Source: Deltaproteobacteria bacterium (GTDB lineage Bacteria > Desulfobacterota > GWC2-55-46 > UBA9637). From it: DNA of 64,000 nucleotides. Numbering within the stretch: position 1 is the stretch's first letter; each line of letters starts with the position of its first letter. The notes beneath the pieces are model-generated. The model had not been told where the DNA came from. It worked only from the letters and a program-made list of their open reading frames with translations, and did no database searches. Location: the NCBI GenBank assembly GCA_030690165.1, contig JAUYHF010000055.1, positions 3,493-67,492 on the forward strand, read 5' to 3'. Made by a program: the position numbers and the translations under genes. Shown in pieces: positions 6,952 to 45,817 of the stretch.

Positions 6952-8418
6952 ATGCCAAAAAATAATAATATGAAAGAAGGTCTTGCCTTTGACGATGTTT
7001 TATTAGCGCCGGCATATTCAGAGATACTGCCAAGGGATGTGGATACATCTACACGACTTACAAATACAATCAAATTAAACATCCCTCTTTTAAGCGCTGC
7101 CATGGATACGGTTACGGAATCCCGCATGGCCATTGCCATAGCGCAGGAAGGCGGCATGGGTATAATCCATAAAAATATTACCATAGAAGAACAGGCAATA
7201 GAGGTTGACAAGGTAAAAAAATACGAAAGTGTTATCATACTTAAACCCAGAACCCTTGACCCGGAGCAGCGTTTATACGACGTATTGGAGATAAAAAAGA
7301 CTGAGCAGATATCCAGTTTTCCCATAGTGAAAAACGGGAAGCTCGTAGGCATCCTTACCAACAGAGATTTAAGATTTGAAAAAAACCTCTCCAAAAAAAT
7401 ATCGGATGTGATGACAAAAGAGCTTGTAACAGCGCCTGTTGGCACATCCATAGAAAAAGCAAAAGCCATCCTCCATCGCCACAGGATTGAAAAGCTGCCT
7501 GTAGTGGATAAAAACGGGCAACTAAAGGGTTTGATAACCATTAACGATATTGAAAAACGAGAAAAATATCCAAACTCCTGCAAAGATAAACTCGGCAGGC
7601 TTATGGTCGGCGCAGCGATTGGCGTTTCTTTTGACCGTGAAGCAAGGGTGGAGGCGCTTTTAAACGCAGGCGCTGATATCATTGCCATTGATACGGCCCA
7701 CGGCCACAGCAAGGGTGTGCTGAATGCTATTAGGGATACAAGGAAGAACTTTCCCAAATGCCAGCTTATAGCAGGCAATGTCGGGACATCTGAAGGCGCA
7801 GAGGCGCTTATAAAAGCCGGTGTTGACGTAATAAAGGTCGGTATCGGTCCAGGTTCTATATGCACGACAAGGATTGTAACAGGTGTTGGCATTCCACAGA
7901 TAACAGCTATTATGAATTGCGCGGCAGTTGCCAGGAAAAAGAATATACCGGTTATTGCTGATGGCGGCGTAAAGTTTTCAGGAGATATGGTAAAGGCCAT
8001 TGCCGCCGGCGCAGACTCTGTAATGATCGGCGGACTCTTTGCCGGCACAGATGAAAGCCCCGGCGAAACTGTATTATATCAGGGACGGACATATAAAATG
8101 TATAGGGGCATGGGCTCAATTGAAGCTATGAAAAAAGGCAGTAAAGATAGATACTTTCAAGATGATGTTGAGAGTGAACTTAAACTTATTCCTGAGGGTA
8201 TTGAAGGAAGGGTTCCGCATAAAGGGCCGGTATCTTCAACTATATTTCAGCTTATTGGCGGCTTAAAATCAGGCATGGGGTATTGTGGTTCAAGGACTAT
8301 TCCTCTTCTTCAAAAGAAGGCAAAATTGGTAAAAATAACCTTTGCAGGGCTGCGCGAGAGCCATGTCCACGATGTGATTATCACAAAAGAGGCGCCGAAT
8401 TATAAGGTGGTGGAGTAG
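6952..8418 (+). CDS. guaB: IMP dehydrogenase
   Basis: TIM barrel with tandem CBS domains; catalytic loop [11 protein letters not shown]; 488 aa. Confidence 0.95.
8356..8418 (+). repeat. Direct repeat copy A (guaB 3' end, 63 bp)
   Basis: 59/63 identical to 9171-9233; copy A is the in-frame end of guaB. Confidence 0.85.
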
Positions 8419-8438
8419 ATAAAATTGCAGAGCGGAAG

Positions 8439-8645
8439 ATGGGTAAAGGTATAGATATGAGAAAAAGTAAGGTTTTGAGGTTTGATGAAATTATGAACCT
8501 CTATGATGAATTGTTTCCTGGTAGAAAAGGGGTAAGGATTGATACCCTGCTAAAATCTGTTGCCCCGAAAACAGTAGCCGAAAGGTTAAAAGAGACCATC
8601 CGGATTTCAGAAAAATTAGTATGGAAAAGACCCTCAAAGAGATAA
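8439..8645 (+). CDS. Small hypothetical protein (68 aa), upstream partner of nucleotidyltransferase
   Basis: ORF overlaps the downstream NTase gene by 25 nt (translational coupling); no recognisable family. Confidence 0.4.
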   Translation: MGKGIDMRKSKVLRFDEIMNLYDELFPGRKGVRIDTLLKSVAPKTVAERLKETIRISEKLVWKRPSKR

Positions 8646-9172
8646 TCAGGATTTTTGAACATGCCGGAGATGTTAAGGCTTATGCCCTTATAGGCGGATT
8701 GGCTGTCGGCGGATGGATTGCGCCGAGGGCAACAAAGGATATAGATATTCTGGCTGATTTATCCGTTACTACCCGTTCCGCAATAGAACGAGTCCTGAAG
8801 AAGTTTTTAACAGCAGGTTTTAAAGGAAGCATACAAATAGGCGCCCCTGAAGATGATATAAAATTTTGTATAAAAGCAGTATCGGGCGAGAAGGTTCCCG
8901 TTGATATAATATTTGCCAGCCGGAAATGGGAGGCGGAAATAGTTGAGGAAGGCTTGCCGGTTGAGTTGTTGAAGGGCCTCTCCATTCCTCTGGTTAGGCC
9001 GGAGGGCTTGATAACGCTTAAGCTAAAAGCTGGCAGCTTTCAAGACATTGCAGATGCATCAAAGCTTTTAGTCGAAGCCGAGTATGATTTACAAAGATTA
9101 CGTAAACTGGCAAAGAGGGCAAGGGTTGATAAAAGGCTCGAAAGGCTTATGGAAAAATTAGAGCTGGCGTGA
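8621..9172 (+). CDS. Minimal Pol-beta superfamily nucleotidyltransferase (AbiEii/MNT-like fold), 183 aa
   Basis: hG[GS]...DxD motif: YALIGGLAVGGWIAPRATKDIDIL; short size; sits between direct repeats. Confidence 0.6.
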   Translation: MEKTLKEIIRIFEHAGDVKAYALIGGLAVGGWIAPRATKDIDILADLSVTTRSAIERVLKKFLTAGFKGSIQIGAPEDDIKFCIKAVSGEKVPVDIIFASRKWEAEIVEEGLPVELLKGLSIPLVRPEGLITLKLKAGSFQDIADASKLLVEAEYDLQRLRKLAKRARVDKRLERLMEKLELA

Positions 9173-9233
9173 GAGCCATGTCCACGATGTTATTATCACA
9201 AAAGAGGTGCCGAATTATAAGGCGGTGGAGTAA
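9171..9233 (+). repeat. Direct repeat copy B (pseudo 3' end of guaB)
   Basis: Encodes [20 protein letters not shown], a near-duplicate of the GuaB C-terminus, detached from any gene. Confidence 0.85.
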
Positions 9234-9661
9234 TGCAGTTAAACAAAGAATTATTCAATAGCTTTACAAAACAATATCAACTTTCCAAAACCCTTCGCTT
9301 TGAATTGGTGCCGCAGCAAGGGACAGAAAAATTAGTCAGGCAATTATTCGAAAAGCCAGAAGAAAATCATCATGAGATTATTCGAAAAGATTTAGAACTT
9401 TCCAAGAGTTACAAGCATGTAAAAAAACTAATTGATTGCAGGCACAGAAGCATTATTGATGAGGTTTTAAACAAGTTTACTTTTAATGAGAAGGAGTTAG
9501 CAATACTCAACAACAATGGCGATTTAGAGGAAGATGATGATACAGATAAAAAAGACCCGCTTAAAAAACTGCGAGAAAAAGTTGCCAGTGCTTTAGATGC
9601 AAAGTCCAAAATCATGTTTGACAACAAGTTGTTAAATCCAGTAAAATTTCTACTATTGTAG
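9233..9661 (+). pseudogene. cas12a: cas12a (cpf1) N-terminal remnant, 142 codons
   Basis: FTKQYQLSKTLRFELVPQQGT and YKHVKKLIDCRHRSIIDEVL match the conserved Cas12a N-terminus (WED-I/REC1); ORF ends in stop TAG that is part of the first CRISPR repeat; full-length Cas12a is ~1200-1300 aa. Confidence 0.75.
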
Positions 9662-9781
9662 ATTAAACTGGGCGCATGGAAATCTCCTTAGTCTAAAGCA
9701 CCAATAAAATTTCTACTATTGTAGATGAATCGGCCTGTGCGCCCGGACAGGAGTGTCTAAAGCACCAATAAAATTTCTACT
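9628..9781 (+). CRISPR. Type V-A (Cas12a-type) mini CRISPR array: 3 repeats (first 5'-degenerate, last 3'-truncated), 2 spacers
   Basis: Repeats at 9628-9663 (degenerate 5' half), 9691-9726 (GTCTAAAGCACCAATAAAATTTCTACTATTGTAGAT) and 9755-9781 (truncated); spacers 9664-9690 (27 nt) and 9727-9754 (28 nt); repeat 3' end AATTTCTACTATTGTAGAT is the Cas12a crRNA handle with TCTAC/GTAGA stem. Confidence 0.8.
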
Positions 9782-9858
9782 CCCCCTCCGTCATATTTTT
9801 TGATTGTTTATTCCGCTCTTTTAAGTTATATTTTCTTACCATTGCTGCAAATTCCTTT

Positions 9859-11418
9859 ATGCCGGACATCCATCAGCAAAAAATCCTCATATTAGATTTT
9901 GGCTCACAATATACCCAGCTCATCGCAAGAAGGGTGAGAGAGGCAAAGGTATATTGCGAGATACATCCTTATAATATCGGCATGGACGGGATAAAGGGTT
10001 TTAATGCCAAAGGCATTATCCTCTCAGGCGGACCGTCAAGTGTCTATGACAAAGATGCTCCTCTTATTCCCAAAGAGGTCTTTAATCTAAATATTCCAAT
10101 CCTTGGCATCTGTTACGGAATGCAGCTTACAGCCCATCTCCTTGGCGGCAAGGTGGAGAAATCTGCTCACAGGGAATACGGAAGCGCTGAACTTGTAATT
10201 GATGATGGTTCGGATTTGTTATCACGCATCACGCATCACGCACAACGCATCACACAAGTTTGGATGAGCCACGGCGACAGGGTTATTAAGATGCCGAAGG
10301 GATTTGTATCTATTGCCCACAGCAAAAATTCGCCTATATGCGCAATGAGTGATGACAGAAGAAAAATATTCGGCGTTCAGTTTCATCCTGAGGTTGTCCA
10401 TACACCAAAAGGCCGGCAGATTATCAAAAACTTCCTTTTTAAGATATGTGGATGCAAGCCTGTATGGACTATGGAATCATTCATAGACACTGCTGTAGCA
10501 GATATAAGGGAGCGGGTGGGGAAGAGAGGTATCGTGTGCGGTATAAGCGGCGGCGTTGATTCTGCCGTTGCAGCTGTTTTGCTTCATCGCGCAGCCGGTA
10601 GGCAGCTAACCTGTATATTTGTTGATAACGGTCTTTTGAGGGCAGGGGAGGCGGAGAAGGTGGAACAAGCTCTCAGGAAAAACTTCCGCATGAGGCTTAT
10701 TTGTATAGACGCCTCCAAAAGGTTTCTTAATAAGCTTACGGGAGTGGAAGACCCTGAAAAAAAGCGAAAGATTATCGGAAATGAATTTATAAGGGTTTTT
10801 GAAGAAGAGGCCATGAAATTAAAAAATGCGGCCTTTCTCGGGCAGGGGACATTGTATCCTGATGTGATTGAAAGCATATCATTCAAAGGCCCTTCAGCTA
10901 CTATAAAAAGTCATCATAATGTAGGCGGGCTCTTAAAAAAGATGAAGCTCAAGCTGGTAGAACCGTTAAGAGAATTATTTAAGGACGAGGTTCGCATCCT
11001 GGGCAGGGCATTGGGTATGCCTGAAGAGATAATAAACAGGCATCCATTTCCGGGGCCAGGCCTTGCTATAAGGGTTTTGGGTGAGGTTACAAAAGAGCGG
11101 TGTGAGATTCTGAGAAAGGCCGACAGTATAGCGCTGGAGGAGATAAAGATTGCGGGACTTTATATAAAGATCTGGCAGGCATTTGCAGTGCTTTTGCCGA
11201 TTAAAACAGTTGGCGTAATGGGAGACGAAAGGACTTATGAAAATGTAATTGCAATAAGGGCGGTAGAGAGTGTGGACGGAATGACAGCGGATTGGGTAAG
11301 ATTGCCTTATGATATTATGGCAAGAATTTCAACGAGAATAATAAATGAGGTAAAAGGTGTAAACAGGGTGGTTTACGATATAAGCACAAAACCCCCGAGT
11401 ACAATAGAATGGGAGTGA
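9859..11418 (+). CDS. guaA: GMP synthase (glutamine-hydrolysing)
   Basis: N-terminal class-I GATase ([20 protein letters not shown]), ATP-PPase SGGVDS motif, conserved C-terminal dimerisation domain ending IEWE. Confidence 0.95.
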
Positions 11419-11423
11419 ACAAA

Positions 11424-12137
11424 ATGGTAGAGGATTTAAAAGGCCAGGAGACTTGGCGGATATTCAAGATAATGAGCGAATTCATAGAGGGCTTTGAAGA
11501 ACTCTCAACAATAGGGCCGGCGGTATCCATATTCGGCTCTGCAAGATTTCACAGGAACCACCGCTATTATAAGAAGACACTGGAAATATCCACTCTTCTT
11601 GCAAAGGATGGCTATACCATCATAACCGGCGGAGGGCCTGGAGTCATGGAGGCAGCCAATAAGGGGGCGATAAATAATGCCGGTATCTCGGTGGGACTTA
11701 ATATAGTTTTGCCGCAGGAACAAAAACCAAATCAATTTCAGAATAAATCCTTATCCTTTAAGTATTTTTTTGCCAGAAAGGTAATGTTCATAAAATACGC
11801 CATGGGTTATGTCTGTATGCCGGGCGGGTTCGGGACATTGGATGAGTTTTTTGAGGCGCTGACCCTTGTTCAGACGCACAAGATATATCCGCTGCCTCTC
11901 ATACTGGTTGGGAAAGATTACTGGAGCGACCTGCTCAAATGGATGAAGACAACCATGTTAATAAAAGAAAAAACAATATCTAAGATAGATTTAGACCTCG
12001 TCAAAATAACTGATGACCCCAAAGAGGTTTTGGCAATAATAAATAAACACAGAGACTGGAAAATAAAAATTATAAAATCCGCCATAAAGAAAAAAAGAAT
12101 AAAAATCCACACAGATAGAAAAAGGGAGATGATATGA
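11424..12137 (+). CDS. LOG family protein (cytokinin riboside 5'-monophosphate phosphoribohydrolase-like, TIGR00730)
   Basis: GGGPGVMEAANKGA and PGGFGTLDEFFE motifs. Confidence 0.8.
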   Translation: MVEDLKGQETWRIFKIMSEFIEGFEELSTIGPAVSIFGSARFHRNHRYYKKTLEISTLLAKDGYTIITGGGPGVMEAANKGAINNAGISVGLNIVLPQEQKPNQFQNKSLSFKYFFARKVMFIKYAMGYVCMPGGFGTLDEFFEALTLVQTHKIYPLPLILVGKDYWSDLLKWMKTTMLIKEKTISKIDLDLVKITDDPKEVLAIINKHRDWKIKIIKSAIKKKRIKIHTDRKREMI

Positions 12138-43030: not shown

Positions 43031-45817
43031 TCAATATCCAACTCCCCTTGCCTCTTCATACCACTTATCAAAGTGATGCGCTAACAGAAGTTTTGAAAAA
43101 TCTGAATCCTTATTAACTATCTCATAGACAATTGTAGGGGTTGCCGACTCAAAACCCTTAAATATTATTTCTCCTGCCTTGCATATCACATCTATCTGTT
43201 TAATCCCCTCTGTCATAAACACGCCAAACCACAATTCCAGCGCCTTAAACGGAAAGAAGAAGGTATTTTGTGTTTCTTTGTTCAATTCAGTTATCCGAAC
43301 CTCCCGCTTAAAAAAGAACCCCCTTCCGCTGTTCTCTTTAATATATGCCTTTAACGCATCCGCGCTCAATGCCTGGCCTTTATTATATATATCGCTGGCA
43401 GCGCTCAATATCCTTAGAGAGGAAAGGGGCTCGCCGGAAATAATTCTTCTAAAATCTCTGAAACATTCCTGGGCCAGCGCAGAAGCCAGGTCTTTTGCCT
43501 CAGACATATCTTTACGGATAATCATGCCTTCCAGATGCTCATCCATGCTTGGAGGCACAAGGAAACCATATGTCTTATCTATATAAACATCAAGCGGATA
43601 TTTGAGGCTTGGGTTGCGCCTCTTAATCCTTTCTTCTTCAAGAAGCCTCTCCATCTTTGCCCTTACTATAGAACTTCTCGCAGTGCCTCTGGCTGCTTCA
43701 TTTATCTTTTCTCCAATAGCCACCTTTAACTCGCCCCAGAAAGCGTCTCTCATTACAATAATCTCAGCCTTGCTGCCATAGGTAATAAAGAGACCTGCCT
43801 CCATCTCCTGTCCTATCGCAGCCTCCAATTCATCTTTATATGTTTTCTCCAGCCTGTCCTCCTTCTCCTTCAATTCTATTGCCCTGGCCTCTAATCCTTT
43901 ACCGCCGGCAGCCACAGCCTTCTCCAATTCAGCCATTTCCCTGCCAAACTCCTCTTTCATTGCCTCAAAGTTCTTATGGATGCTGCGGAGAAGCTCTTCT
44001 TCTGCAATATGATGAACCCTTCTCTCTAATTGCTCTTTATACCTCTTCATAACCAGCCGAATATCCTTTGCCAAGGCAATAAGATTGCTGACCCCGCCGG
44101 AAAATACCACGGCGTCGCCAAGCAGATTGTTCAATTTTATGTTCTTTTCATCATATGCCAAACCAGGGGCTGAAGAGCCGTATCTGCCTGCGGCCCTGAG
44201 GATGGGCTTATAGAAATTTGATTCCATAAAGTCCGCCATTATGATCTCCTTTGCCCTCAGGGTCTTCCTTGTAAAATCCTTCATGTCTACAAAGAGATGT
44301 CCTTCATCCTCTGCCTCTAACTCCTTTAATATTGCCATACTATCAGAGGAAAACCGGTAAAGCCTTCCCCTTTCATATTCCATTTTCAATGTCTCGATAG
44401 AAAACTCACCGCGCCTGTCAACCATCAATTCACGCATGGGACCGGCAAACCTCTCCACATCTTCATCAAATCTGTACGCGGTAAATGACTCTAATATGTC
44501 CCTAACGTACATGCCCCCTTTTCTTATTCCTAATAAGCCGCTAAAGGTGGTTTTTTTAACGGAGTCTATAAACTCCTCTATTGCATCTATTCTCTCTATT
44601 CTGCCTATATCCTTTTGAAACTGCGCCTTTATATTTTCTAAACCTTCCTTCAGTCTCGTCGTTATCTTTGTATCCGTAAAGAGCATCTGAATAAATCTAT
44701 TGTCCTGATATAATTCGGCAAGCATCTGGTTAATCCCCATTCCAGGGGTGTCGTAATCCAGAAGGTAATCGCCTATCAGCTGTCTTAAATGGTTTATATT
44801 GGAGAACCTGAAAAGCCCTTCTCTGAGAGACGAATCCTTTTTTATCTCATTTTCCATCATCTGGATAATACTTGCGGCATCCTGATTGGGGACAGATTTC
44901 AAATCTGTCCCCAGTGCATTGTCATAAAATGGCTTTAATAAAGAGACTACATCGGCCTGAAGCCCGTATGGATTTAAATCGCTTAAAATAATATTCCCAT
45001 GAATGGTCAAAAAACTTCTTGGTGTAAACCATTCCTCAAAAACCATCGGCGCTGCAGAGCTATTAGAAGCCGTTATTTGTCTTATTTCAGACGCCACATC
45101 CTTTACAGCAGCCTTAAAAACAAAATACAGGGCAAGCCCTGCTATCTGATCCAGCCTTTCATAACTAAGGCCTTTTATCTTTGTATTTCTTATAATGGCC
45201 TCTTTCTTCCGTATGGCAATATTTATCATAGCCATAATCGCCAGAACAGATGTCTTCTCCACGCCTTCCAAGCGCACCTCTTCAAGCACGGCCTTTCCCA
45301 ATATTCCCTTGACCAGCGCATAAAATGTCTTTCCATAACCATCCGGAGAAAGCCATGCCTTTAATATCCCGCTGTCAATAAAGGGTGTTGTTGTTAATAT
45401 TTCGCAGGCAATATTTTTTTCTACTGAGCCGGGCAGGAAATAATCTGTCCTATAAGTCTTCTCTGAGAGGGTTGTTTTTATATCAATGGTGGAAGGAAGG
45501 CTGCCTTTGATTTCGTGTTCAGAGCCTGGTTCAAAACGTCTTCTTAAAAGTATCAGCAGCGCAAGAATGGCTCTTTCTATTACAGACTCATCTTCTACGC
45601 CGAACAGGCAGGGTATCTTTAAGTCTTTTATAGACTCCCCTAAACGGAATCTCGTATAAGAAGGCTCTATCATCCACAATCTGCCTGTTTTAAGTTCAAA
45701 TCCTTTTTGTAAAATACCATCAAGGACTTTGAGCCTCTCTTTGACGAATGTATGGTAGGTATCTGTCGGCATAGAATTAGCAGGCAGCTTACAACAGATG
45801 GGTGCGCTTCGCTTCAT
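43031..45817 (-). CDS. Large hypothetical protein (928 aa), no recognisable catalytic motifs
   Basis: Long uninterrupted ORF with normal codon usage; mostly alpha-helical with a central charged coiled-coil segment. Confidence 0.6.
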   Translation of the reverse strand: MKRSAPICCKLPANSMPTDTYHTFVKERLKVLDGILQKGFELKTGRLWMIEPSYTRFRLGESIKDLKIPCLFGVEDESVIERAILALLILLRRRFEPGSEHEIKGSLPSTIDIKTTLSEKTYRTDYFLPGSVEKNIACEILTTTPFIDSGILKAWLSPDGYGKTFYALVKGILGKAVLEEVRLEGVEKTSVLAIMAMINIAIRKKEAIIRNTKIKGLSYERLDQIAGLALYFVFKAAVKDVASEIRQITASNSSAAPMVFEEWFTPRSFLTIHGNIILSDLNPYGLQADVVSLLKPFYDNALGTDLKSVPNQDAASIIQMMENEIKKDSSLREGLFRFSNINHLRQLIGDYLLDYDTPGMGINQMLAELYQDNRFIQMLFTDTKITTRLKEGLENIKAQFQKDIGRIERIDAIEEFIDSVKKTTFSGLLGIRKGGMYVRDILESFTAYRFDEDVERFAGPMRELMVDRRGEFSIETLKMEYERGRLYRFSSDSMAILKELEAEDEGHLFVDMKDFTRKTLRAKEIIMADFMESNFYKPILRAAGRYGSSAPGLAYDEKNIKLNNLLGDAVVFSGGVSNLIALAKDIRLVMKRYKEQLERRVHHIAEEELLRSIHKNFEAMKEEFGREMAELEKAVAAGGKGLEARAIELKEKEDRLEKTYKDELEAAIGQEMEAGLFITYGSKAEIIVMRDAFWGELKVAIGEKINEAARGTARSSIVRAKMERLLEEERIKRRNPSLKYPLDVYIDKTYGFLVPPSMDEHLEGMIIRKDMSEAKDLASALAQECFRDFRRIISGEPLSSLRILSAASDIYNKGQALSADALKAYIKENSGRGFFFKREVRITELNKETQNTFFFPFKALELWFGVFMTEGIKQIDVICKAGEIIFKGFESATPTIVYEIVNKDSDFSKLLLAHHFDKWYEEARGVGY

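Follow-up and report, generated by a model that had tools for sequence, protein, structure and literature searches.

How does a CRISPR array with only two spacers come to lie between guaB and guaA, joined to a short piece of cas12a, and can it still do anything there? A preliminary description of this DNA, made from the sequence alone, identified an orphan type V-A mini-array in crRNA sense on the + strand, running in the same direction as a cas12a remnant and ending 77 bp before guaA, into which its transcripts might read. Here, we examine each boundary of this locus and compare it with related genomes. By the window we mean the whole stretch of DNA that was analysed, 64 kb in length. We conclude that this is probably a type V-A CRISPR-Cas locus reduced to a stump by internal deletion, and now a non-autonomous relic. 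The features on which this conclusion is built are collected in Table 1.

Table 1. Positions of the features at and around the array, numbered from the first letter of the window
Feature	Position	Strand	Remarks
guaB (IMP dehydrogenase), left flank	6952–8418	+	Pfam IMPDH, E=9e-166
Direct repeat copy 1, 67 nt, true guaB 3′ end including stop	8352–8418	+	62/67 identical to 9167–9233
68-aa ORF, possible antitoxin	8439–8645	+	Overlaps next ORF
AbiEii-like nucleotidyltransferase toxin gene	8621–9172	+	Pfam PF08843, E=9e-7
Direct repeat copy 2, guaB pseudo-end	9167–9233	+	TAA overlaps cas12a ATG as TAATG
cas12a 5′ remnant, codons 1–136	9233–9641	+	About 9% of a protein of ~1450 aa
Candidate sigma-70-like promoter match	9618–9647	+	11/12 consensus positions; spans junction
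R1′, partial repeat	9642–9663	+	Exact match to repeat nt 15–36; complete Cas12a handle retained
Spacer 1, 27 nt	9664–9690	+	44% GC; unique in window
R2, full type V-A repeat, 36 nt	9691–9726	+	Identical 36-mer in L003 array
Spacer 2, 28 nt	9727–9754	+	68% GC; unique in window
R3′, partial repeat, 27 nt	9755–9781	+	Broken off inside hairpin; no fold
guaA leader, non-ancestral, 77 nt	9782–9858	+	Relatives have 9 nt here
guaA (GMP synthase), right flank	9859–11418	+	Pfam GATase and GMP_synt_C; homologues 88–98% identical

Anatomy and identity of the array

The array comprises one full repeat, R2 (GTCTAAAGCACCAATAAAATTTCTACTATTGTAGAT), flanked by two partial copies, with a periodicity of 63–64 nt. 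R1′ is an exact copy of the last 22 nt of the repeat, and R3′ of its first 27 nt; the 9 nt that follow R3′ have 0 of 9 positions in common with the repeat. Repeats of about 36 nt, and unique spacers within about 26–30 nt, are as expected of a type V-A array. The repeat begins with GTCTAA, and its 3′ end, AATTTCTAC-TATT-GTAGAT, contains the elements of the Cas12a 5′ handle (AAUUUCUAC, a loop of 4–5 nt, GUAGAU). The hairpin TCTAC/GTAGA, with its 4-nt loop, is calculated at −4.8 kcal/mol in R1′ and R2, and is absent from R3′. The handle occurs twice in the 64 kb, against 0.00 copies expected by chance from shuffles, and no further copy of it or of the 5′ part of the repeat is found within the window. 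Within the window, the 36-mer is confined to this locus, and it is not the common dispersed repeat that the preliminary description had allowed for.

Comparison with known arrays points the same way. Both the Prevotella Pb2Cas12a repeat, which has served for CRISPRi in Bacteroides, and a variant repeat from enAsCas12a multiplex arrays have exactly the same 3′ 19 nt, AATTTCTACTATTGTAGAT. The Francisella repeat differs from the handle of the window by one loop base and has the same 5′ GTCTAA. Contig JACRNI010000062.1 (L003), which belongs to another deltaproteobacterial MAG of groundwater origin, ends in a regular array in which the entire 36-mer occurs at least eight times, separated by spacers of 26–28 nt. 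No spacer is common to the two arrays, and all three repeat pieces in the window are identical to the L003 consensus, with no mutations. Rfam models returned neither a CRISPR-DR nor any other family over 9550–9900, even at E≤10, and three tRNAs only for the whole window at the gathering score. The repeat is of type V-A, as shown by the cas12a fragment attached on the same strand, the identity of the handle and the L003 array; the same three observations rule out a non-CRISPR repeat.

Most of what had been said of the array thus stands: a type V-A mini-array with two spacers, its sequence and coordinates, the crRNA sense shared with the cas12a remnant, the truncation of the last repeat, the high GC content of spacer 2 (against 44% for the window) and the 77 bp that separate the end of R3′ from the start of guaA.

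The two spacers are partly complementary to each other (−23.1 kcal/mol), a value matched by 7 of 5000 shuffles. This is probably chance, because natural pairs of L003 spacers reach −21.6 kcal/mol.

The cas12a stump and its junction with the repeat

The ORF that precedes the array (9233–9661, 142 aa; locus tag Q8P28_09035, on the 133-kb contig) starts as Cas12a. PADLOC Cas12a models match it with E-values down to 3e-20, residues 6–135 aligning with positions 2–125 of models of about 1150–1360 positions; in the best alignment, residues 6–134 are paired with positions 2–122 of 1147. NCBIfam TIGR04330 scores 53.7 bits, relative to a full-length cutoff of 300, and a PDB profile search matched 26 Cas12a/Cpf1 chains, all within the first ~135 residues. 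An exhaustive HMMER search recovered full-length relatives of 1446 aa (P0243, 67% identical) and 1487 aa (P0244, 59%), as well as a partial one of 413 aa (P0241, 82%); P0002 and P0241 are 82–83% identical to the stump.

These four relatives show where the gene breaks off. In all of them, KIMFDNKLLN(P) is followed by ordinary REC1 sequence; the ORF of the window instead ends KLLNP-VKFLLL-stop, and its last six codons and the stop are encoded by the repeat itself (TAAAATTTCTACTATTGTAG), the reading frame passing through R1′ to a TAG at 9659–9661. DNA similarity to the cas12a gene of L001 stops at 9635. Because the homologues continue after KLLN(P) and the window switches to repeat-encoded VKFLLL, we take 9641/9642 to be a deletion junction, at which cas12a codon 136 is fused to repeat nt 15. 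The exact crossover lies somewhere in 9638–9647, with CCA common to both parents; a few further bases of microhomology could have come from the lysine-rich stretch with which cas12a continued. The coding content of 9628–9641 shows that the 5′ half of repeat 1 has not degenerated, contrary to what had been proposed: these 14 nt are the cas12a codons for (K)LLNP, conserved in the homologues, and they agree with the repeat at 6 positions. The 136 codons contain no internal stop.

Nothing else of a CRISPR-Cas system is seen nearby. Codons 1–136 are all that remains of an adjacent effector gene, and no ORF in the 64-kb window reaches 1000 aa. No leader precedes the first repeat, the first piece of which is fused straight to cas12a coding sequence. 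When the window's 56 largest ORFs were scanned, no Cas family besides that of the stump appeared among the matches listed; Cas1 and Cas4 are not among the best 25 of the 35 families matched, in a scan that covered ORFs of 140 aa and above, larger than cas2.

Short N-terminal fragments of Cas12a dominate the top of the word-indexed homologue list, where none of the best 120 of 699 hits exceeds 376 aa. These may be stumps, split genes or cuts at contig ends; the search is apparently biased to short proteins, and the list gives no basis for claiming that full-length orthologues are absent. Two cases were checked on long contigs, a stump of 188 aa and a split gene. The 188-aa stump adjoins prophage tail genes in four assemblies.

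An insertion between guaB and guaA

In four close relatives (L006/L007, L008/L009, L011 and L012), whose GuaA proteins are 90–96% identical to that of the window, guaB and guaA are only 9 nt apart. We therefore regard the 1440 nt from 8419 to 9858 as an insertion. Gene order is conserved in the three of these relatives that have long contigs; L011, a contig of 2.6 kb, shows the end of guaB, guaA and the next gene only. To the right of the block, homology with the relatives picks up again near guaA codon 2. At the empty sites, guaA starts with GTG, preceded by a purine-rich GGAG/AGAGG stretch that looks by eye like a ribosome-binding site; in the window, inspection by eye shows no Shine-Dalgarno sequence ahead of the guaA ATG. 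That the tight guaB–guaA pair has been split by this 1.44-kb block had been overlooked.

The insertion consists, in order, of the 68-aa ORF, the AbiEii-like gene, a duplicate of the guaB 3′ end, the cas12a stump, the array stump and the 77-nt leader of guaA. For the guaB ends of the relatives, identity is 59–63 of 67 positions with copy 1 of the duplicate and 54–58 of 67 with copy 2, except for L014, where it is 54 of 67 with both. The AbiEii-like protein scores 29.5 bits against PF08843 (cutoff 22.5) and covers profile positions 7–189 of 238; its ORF terminates 6 nt into the duplicated guaB end, and the gene is probably truncated C-terminally. No family in Pfam, PADLOC or NCBIfam matches the 68-aa ORF. 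The overlap of the two ORFs, at 8621–8645, is typical of many toxin-antitoxin pairs.

The right end of the insertion is shared with the closest relative, L010 (GuaA 98% identical), which has the 63 nt from 9796 to 9858 in common with the window. Upstream of this common leader, L010 has a different sequence and then the contig ends, which implies that the island's right end predates the present stump. Degenerate terminal repeats were sought in both leaders and rejected: the candidate upstream of guaA in L010 gave a local alignment with p ~0.11, and that at 9788–9823 of the window has 10 of 36 identities by eye.

A second stump in a related genome

A similar remnant lies on L014, a 3.2-kb contig from another sample, whose guaB and ppx are 87% and 70% identical to those of the window; L014 is a more distant relative than the genomes with the empty site. 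The contig begins with ~22 nt of guaB-like sequence, closer to the guaB end of the window than to that of L014 itself. It continues with cas12a codons 1 to ~74, of which the first ~100 nt are 83% identical to the DNA of the window and the remainder diverges. A full repeat (35/36 identical to that of the window), a 26-nt spacer and a second repeat with a stem mutation come next, followed by a tail of ~37 nt that resembles window positions ~9824–9858, and then by ppx and guaB. Both loci thus appear to have once stood directly after a guaB stop codon.

The truncation points differ, with codon ~74 joined to repeat nt 1 in L014 and codon 136 to nt 15 in the window, so the two stumps go back to separate deletions in related loci. 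On the simplest reading, internal deletions clear the middle of a dead island and its ends survive, since further loss would damage essential flanking genes.

Searches for spacer targets and related repeats

The preliminary description proposed that the spacers be searched against phage, plasmid and metagenome databases. No protospacer was found for either, which leaves a foreign origin of the GC-rich spacer 2 hypothetical. Neither spacer 1 nor spacer 2 has an exact 20- to 22-mer in IMG/VR, and BLAST of both against phage and plasmid collections gave matches at chance level only (E ~3–10). The best plasmid match, 22 of 23 nt in Pseudomonas plasmids, extends into the repeat and has no T-rich PAM, and we set it aside as chance. 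The spacers match none of the loci that were fetched. Likewise, the L014 spacer and two L003 spacers have no exact 20–22-mers in IMG/VR.

The 27-nt core of the repeat has no exact match in IMG/VR, and plasmids gave chance matches only. A solitary V-A-like repeat was found in the Methanosarcina virus MetMV. No intact locus in which guaB is followed by cas12a, an array and guaA was recovered, the scan of metagenomes with a profile of the stump yielding a single contig of 1 kb.

Discussion

What kind of history would leave such a structure? We propose that the ancestral locus, cas12a first and array last, stood directly after guaB, its ATG overlapping the guaB stop codon. An internal deletion would then have joined cas12a codon 136 (9641) to repeat nt 15 (9642), taking with it ~1300 codons of cas12a and some repeat-spacer units. 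By analogy with typical V-A loci, the adaptation genes (cas4-cas1-cas2) and the leader were probably lost as well. A second break would have cut the last repeat after nt 27, leaving the full repeat and the spacers on either side of it between 22 nt of one repeat and 27 nt of another.

In its present form, the stump is incapable of spacer acquisition or interference by itself, because it has neither an effector nor adaptation genes, and it may well have no function at all today. It is presumably co-transcribed passively with the genes upstream, with read-through into guaA. No terminator-like site is found on the + strand between 8300 and 10000, and transcripts from guaB, from the toxin-antitoxin genes or from the cas12a start should therefore run on into guaA. 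The read-through suggested earlier is strengthened to this extent; the transcription itself we infer.

The repeat pieces are still at consensus and the stump has no internal stop, which implies either that decay is recent or that something is being maintained. If something is maintained, it could be the guides. The transcript of the array would in that case be processed in trans, and its two guides used for interference, by a full-length Cas12a from another part of the genome or from a resident mobile element. Both guide units keep a full 19-nt handle and the bases flanking the site of Cas12a cleavage. Repeats are interchangeable among Cas12a orthologues provided that the stem is conserved, and the pieces here are unmutated relative to the L003 array. 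The only cut that Cas12a makes in pre-crRNA lies upstream of the handle, trimming of the 3′ end being left to other nucleases; guide 2 can therefore do without the truncated third repeat, and a Cas12a supplied in trans could load both guides. Many chromosomal arrays with no adjacent cas genes do match Cas systems encoded elsewhere, but the average size of such orphan arrays is lower, and decay is frequent among them (PMC7145637). The stump is also the only cas gene found in the 64 kb that we see of a 133-kb MAG contig, and neither spacer has a protospacer in IMG/VR or in the phage and plasmid collections. On balance, we think it unlikely that this is a working orphan mini-array. Were its guides in use, small RNAs of 40–44 nt should be present, starting with AAUUUCUACUAUUGUAGAU and continuing into spacer 1 or spacer 2.

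A different kind of use is suggested by a near-consensus promoter match at the junction, on account of which the stump could be non-neutral. The candidate has a −35 box TTGACA, from cas12a codons 129–131, an 18-nt spacer and a −10 box TAAAAT, from the repeat (9642–9647). Only three sites this good occur on both strands of the window (128 kb), and this one lies exactly across the junction. If active, it would start transcription at about 9654, inside the R1′ hairpin, and would yield one RNA with spacer 1, R2, spacer 2, R3′ and guaA. The deletion would then have created a hybrid promoter that drives guaA, which would explain its fixation, and the stump would have been co-opted. The insertion did replace the 9-nt guaB–guaA spacer and the native ribosome-binding region, and no terminator intervenes between the candidate and guaA. 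In L014, a 10/12 match inside the mini-array points at ppx-guaB; this, however, does not exceed shuffle expectation, and such matches arise readily in AT-rich repeats. Transcripts of guaA could come just as well from read-through of guaB, the predicted start falls within a hairpin, and the closest relative, L010, has the same guaA leader with a different upstream part. The evidence for the promoter is a match to consensus, and we judge its co-option improbable, though it would be compatible with a gutted V-A locus as the origin of the stump.

Taken together, the view that the stump is in use, whether as a hybrid promoter restoring expression of the essential guaA after the operon was split, through guides used in trans, or both, seems to us a poor prospect. 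If it were correct, the retention in L014 of a cas12a start and a mini-array before ppx-guaB would reflect selection, not chance, and the locus would be a small case of the wreckage of defence genes being re-used, for housekeeping expression or for residual immunity.

Finally, the locus could in principle have arisen in assembly, by the collapse or chimeric joining of cas12a with a longer array, given that metagenome assemblers often break or collapse CRISPR arrays and that the related L003 array stops at a contig end. We consider this highly implausible, because an independent assembly (Logan, from SRR13727534) shows 100% identity to the window across 14.4 kb, all junctions included, because the repeated pieces, of only 22 and 27 nt, would be shorter than k and give an unbranched path if Logan uses k=31, as we presume it does, and because the few nucleotides of microhomology, at most, at the cas12a–repeat junction are too little for a k-mer chimera.

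We therefore favor a gutted V-A locus. The points that merit modest attention are the base-resolved junctions, the position within a guaB–guaA pair, the overlap of a guaB stop with the cas12a ATG, the recurrence in L014 and the promoter match at the junction. The locus would offer a base-resolved view of how a class 2 CRISPR-Cas system is lost, with two ends of an island kept, each shielded by an essential neighbor. It also carries a caution for annotation. Array callers would report an orphan mini-array, and gene callers a hypothetical protein of 142 aa, the last six codons of which are CRISPR repeat.

Compared with the type V-A arrays of Francisella novicida, Prevotella bryantii (Pb2Cas12a), Acidaminococcus and Lachnospiraceae, the window likewise has a 36-nt repeat with a GTCTAA start, spacers of 27–28 nt, and an array downstream of cas12a in the same direction. 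It differs in keeping 9% of cas12a, no cas4, cas1 or cas2 and no leader, and in having two spacers only, between a first and a last repeat that are both cut. Its upstream neighbors are candidates for an AbiE type IV toxin-antitoxin pair, which would consist of an AbiEii toxin and an AbiEi antitoxin: the AbiEii-like toxin passes the Pfam cutoff with a partial profile, and its 68-aa partner is without a family match.

In type II-C arrays, such as those of Neisseria and Campylobacter, promoters are embedded in the CRISPR repeats. A TAAAAT box of the −10 type within the repeat could similarly start transcription inside the array of the window; unlike in II-C repeats, the putative −35 box would come from cas12a coding sequence at the junction, and the arrangement occurs once. 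Work by Medvedeva and colleagues and by Faure and colleagues, both of 2019, is said to have described mini-arrays and solitary repeat units on viruses and plasmids. The array of the window resembles these in its one or two spacers, compatible repeat and lack of cas genes. It differs from them in its conserved housekeeping neighborhood and its cas12a fragment. It is flanked by housekeeping genes, arranged as they are in the relatives, with no sign of a virus, a plasmid or an integrated element, and it is a deletion product, not an array purpose-built for a mobile element.

The closest counterparts are orphan and degenerate arrays, of which the I-F orphan arrays of E. coli and the degraded loci of Francisella tularensis are examples. 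Like the chromosomal arrays of this kind (PMC7145637), the one described here is short, lacks a working cas module alongside, and is a remnant that might be usable in trans; what sets it apart is that both breakpoints are resolved to the base and that part of the effector gene remains joined to the array. It is a case of ordinary genome decay within the class of degraded and orphan arrays, not a new kind of system.

Proposed assembly of the island

The 3′ end of guaB is duplicated in the window as a 67-nt direct repeat (62/67 identical). Its two copies flank an AbiE-like gene pair on both sides, and the TAA that ends copy 2 overlaps the ATG of cas12a. This arrangement suggests that guaB/guaA homology anchored the recombination by which the pieces of the island arrived, and that one join, within the toxin gene, was illegitimate. 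The AbiEii-like toxin ORF covers only positions 7–189 of the 238 in the Pfam profile and stops 6 nt inside the duplicated guaB end, and is therefore probably truncated as well. The 68-aa ORF upstream of it matches no family.

The insertion has also replaced the native translation signals of guaA, an essential gene. In relatives, GGAGCAAGAG precedes a GTG start 9 nt past guaB; ahead of the ATG in the window (AAATTCCTTTATG), no Shine-Dalgarno sequence is seen by eye.

Features discussed, with their positions
Feature	Sequence	Positions	Strand
guaB-end copies 1 and 2	window	8352-8418, 9167-9233	
68-aa ORF	window	8439-8645	
AbiEii-like toxin ORF	window	8621-9172	
Spacers 1 and 2	window	9664-9690, 9727-9754	
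Region of guaA start	window	9840-9864	
928-aa ORF	window	43031-45817	-
Tandem units	L001	1-240	
Solitary V-A-like repeat	L005 (MK170447.1 14841-14980)	3001-3140	
Cas9-Cas1-Cas2 locus	L008	15890-20155	
Hairpins and GC-rich sequence	L014	2935-3220	
Split cas12a	L015 (JACRPW010000044.1)	9175-11936	
Cas12a N-terminal stump	L016	9592-10158	

Spacers, repeats and neighboring loci

Spacers 1 and 2 of the window could form a 12-bp pairing (core GGGCGCA/TGCGCCC, -23.1 kcal/mol) that would enclose repeat 2, with an energy equalled in 7 of 5000 shuffles. This complementarity is probably due to chance, because natural spacer pairs in L003, an array with the identical repeat, reach -21.6 kcal/mol.

An unannotated, solitary V-A-like repeat, GTCCAAAGGACGGATTAAATTTCTACTATTGTAGAT, occurs in Methanosarcina virus MetMV, followed by ~50 nt and then a strong hairpin and T-run. 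This resembles a single-guide unit carried by the virus, and goes unmentioned in the MetMV paper (PMC7164591).

A Cas9-Cas1-Cas2 locus, encoding a 1011-aa Cas9, is present in a close relative (L008) whose guaA is 92% identical. It lies downstream of the guaA block, at a distance of ~4 kb, in a place that other genes occupy in the window; the clade thus varies in its CRISPR content. In L014, which holds a second cas12a-repeat stump, no guaA follows guaB. Two hairpins lie past guaB, and the GC-rich, structured-looking sequence after them might be an RNA gene. Elsewhere in the window, searches of Pfam, NCBIfam and PADLOC gave no match for a 928-aa ORF that adjoins a purQ-like gene.

Truncation of cas12a in other loci

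Junction with prophage tail genes is another route to cas12a truncation: in four assemblies (L016–L019), a 188-aa Cas12a N-terminal stump directly adjoins convergent tail genes. On L001, a ~120-nt unit occurs twice in tandem, upstream of the cas12a fragment P0003 (72% identical), whose ORF departs from the Cas12a alignment directly past 'KLL'. Since coverage of this contig is only 2.3x, the departure may be a sequencing error. Finally, L015 has a split cas12a at a contig end, one piece 353 aa long and the other at least 253 aa, with a BrnT-like toxin pair directly ahead; as in the window, toxin-antitoxin genes stand immediately upstream of cas12a.
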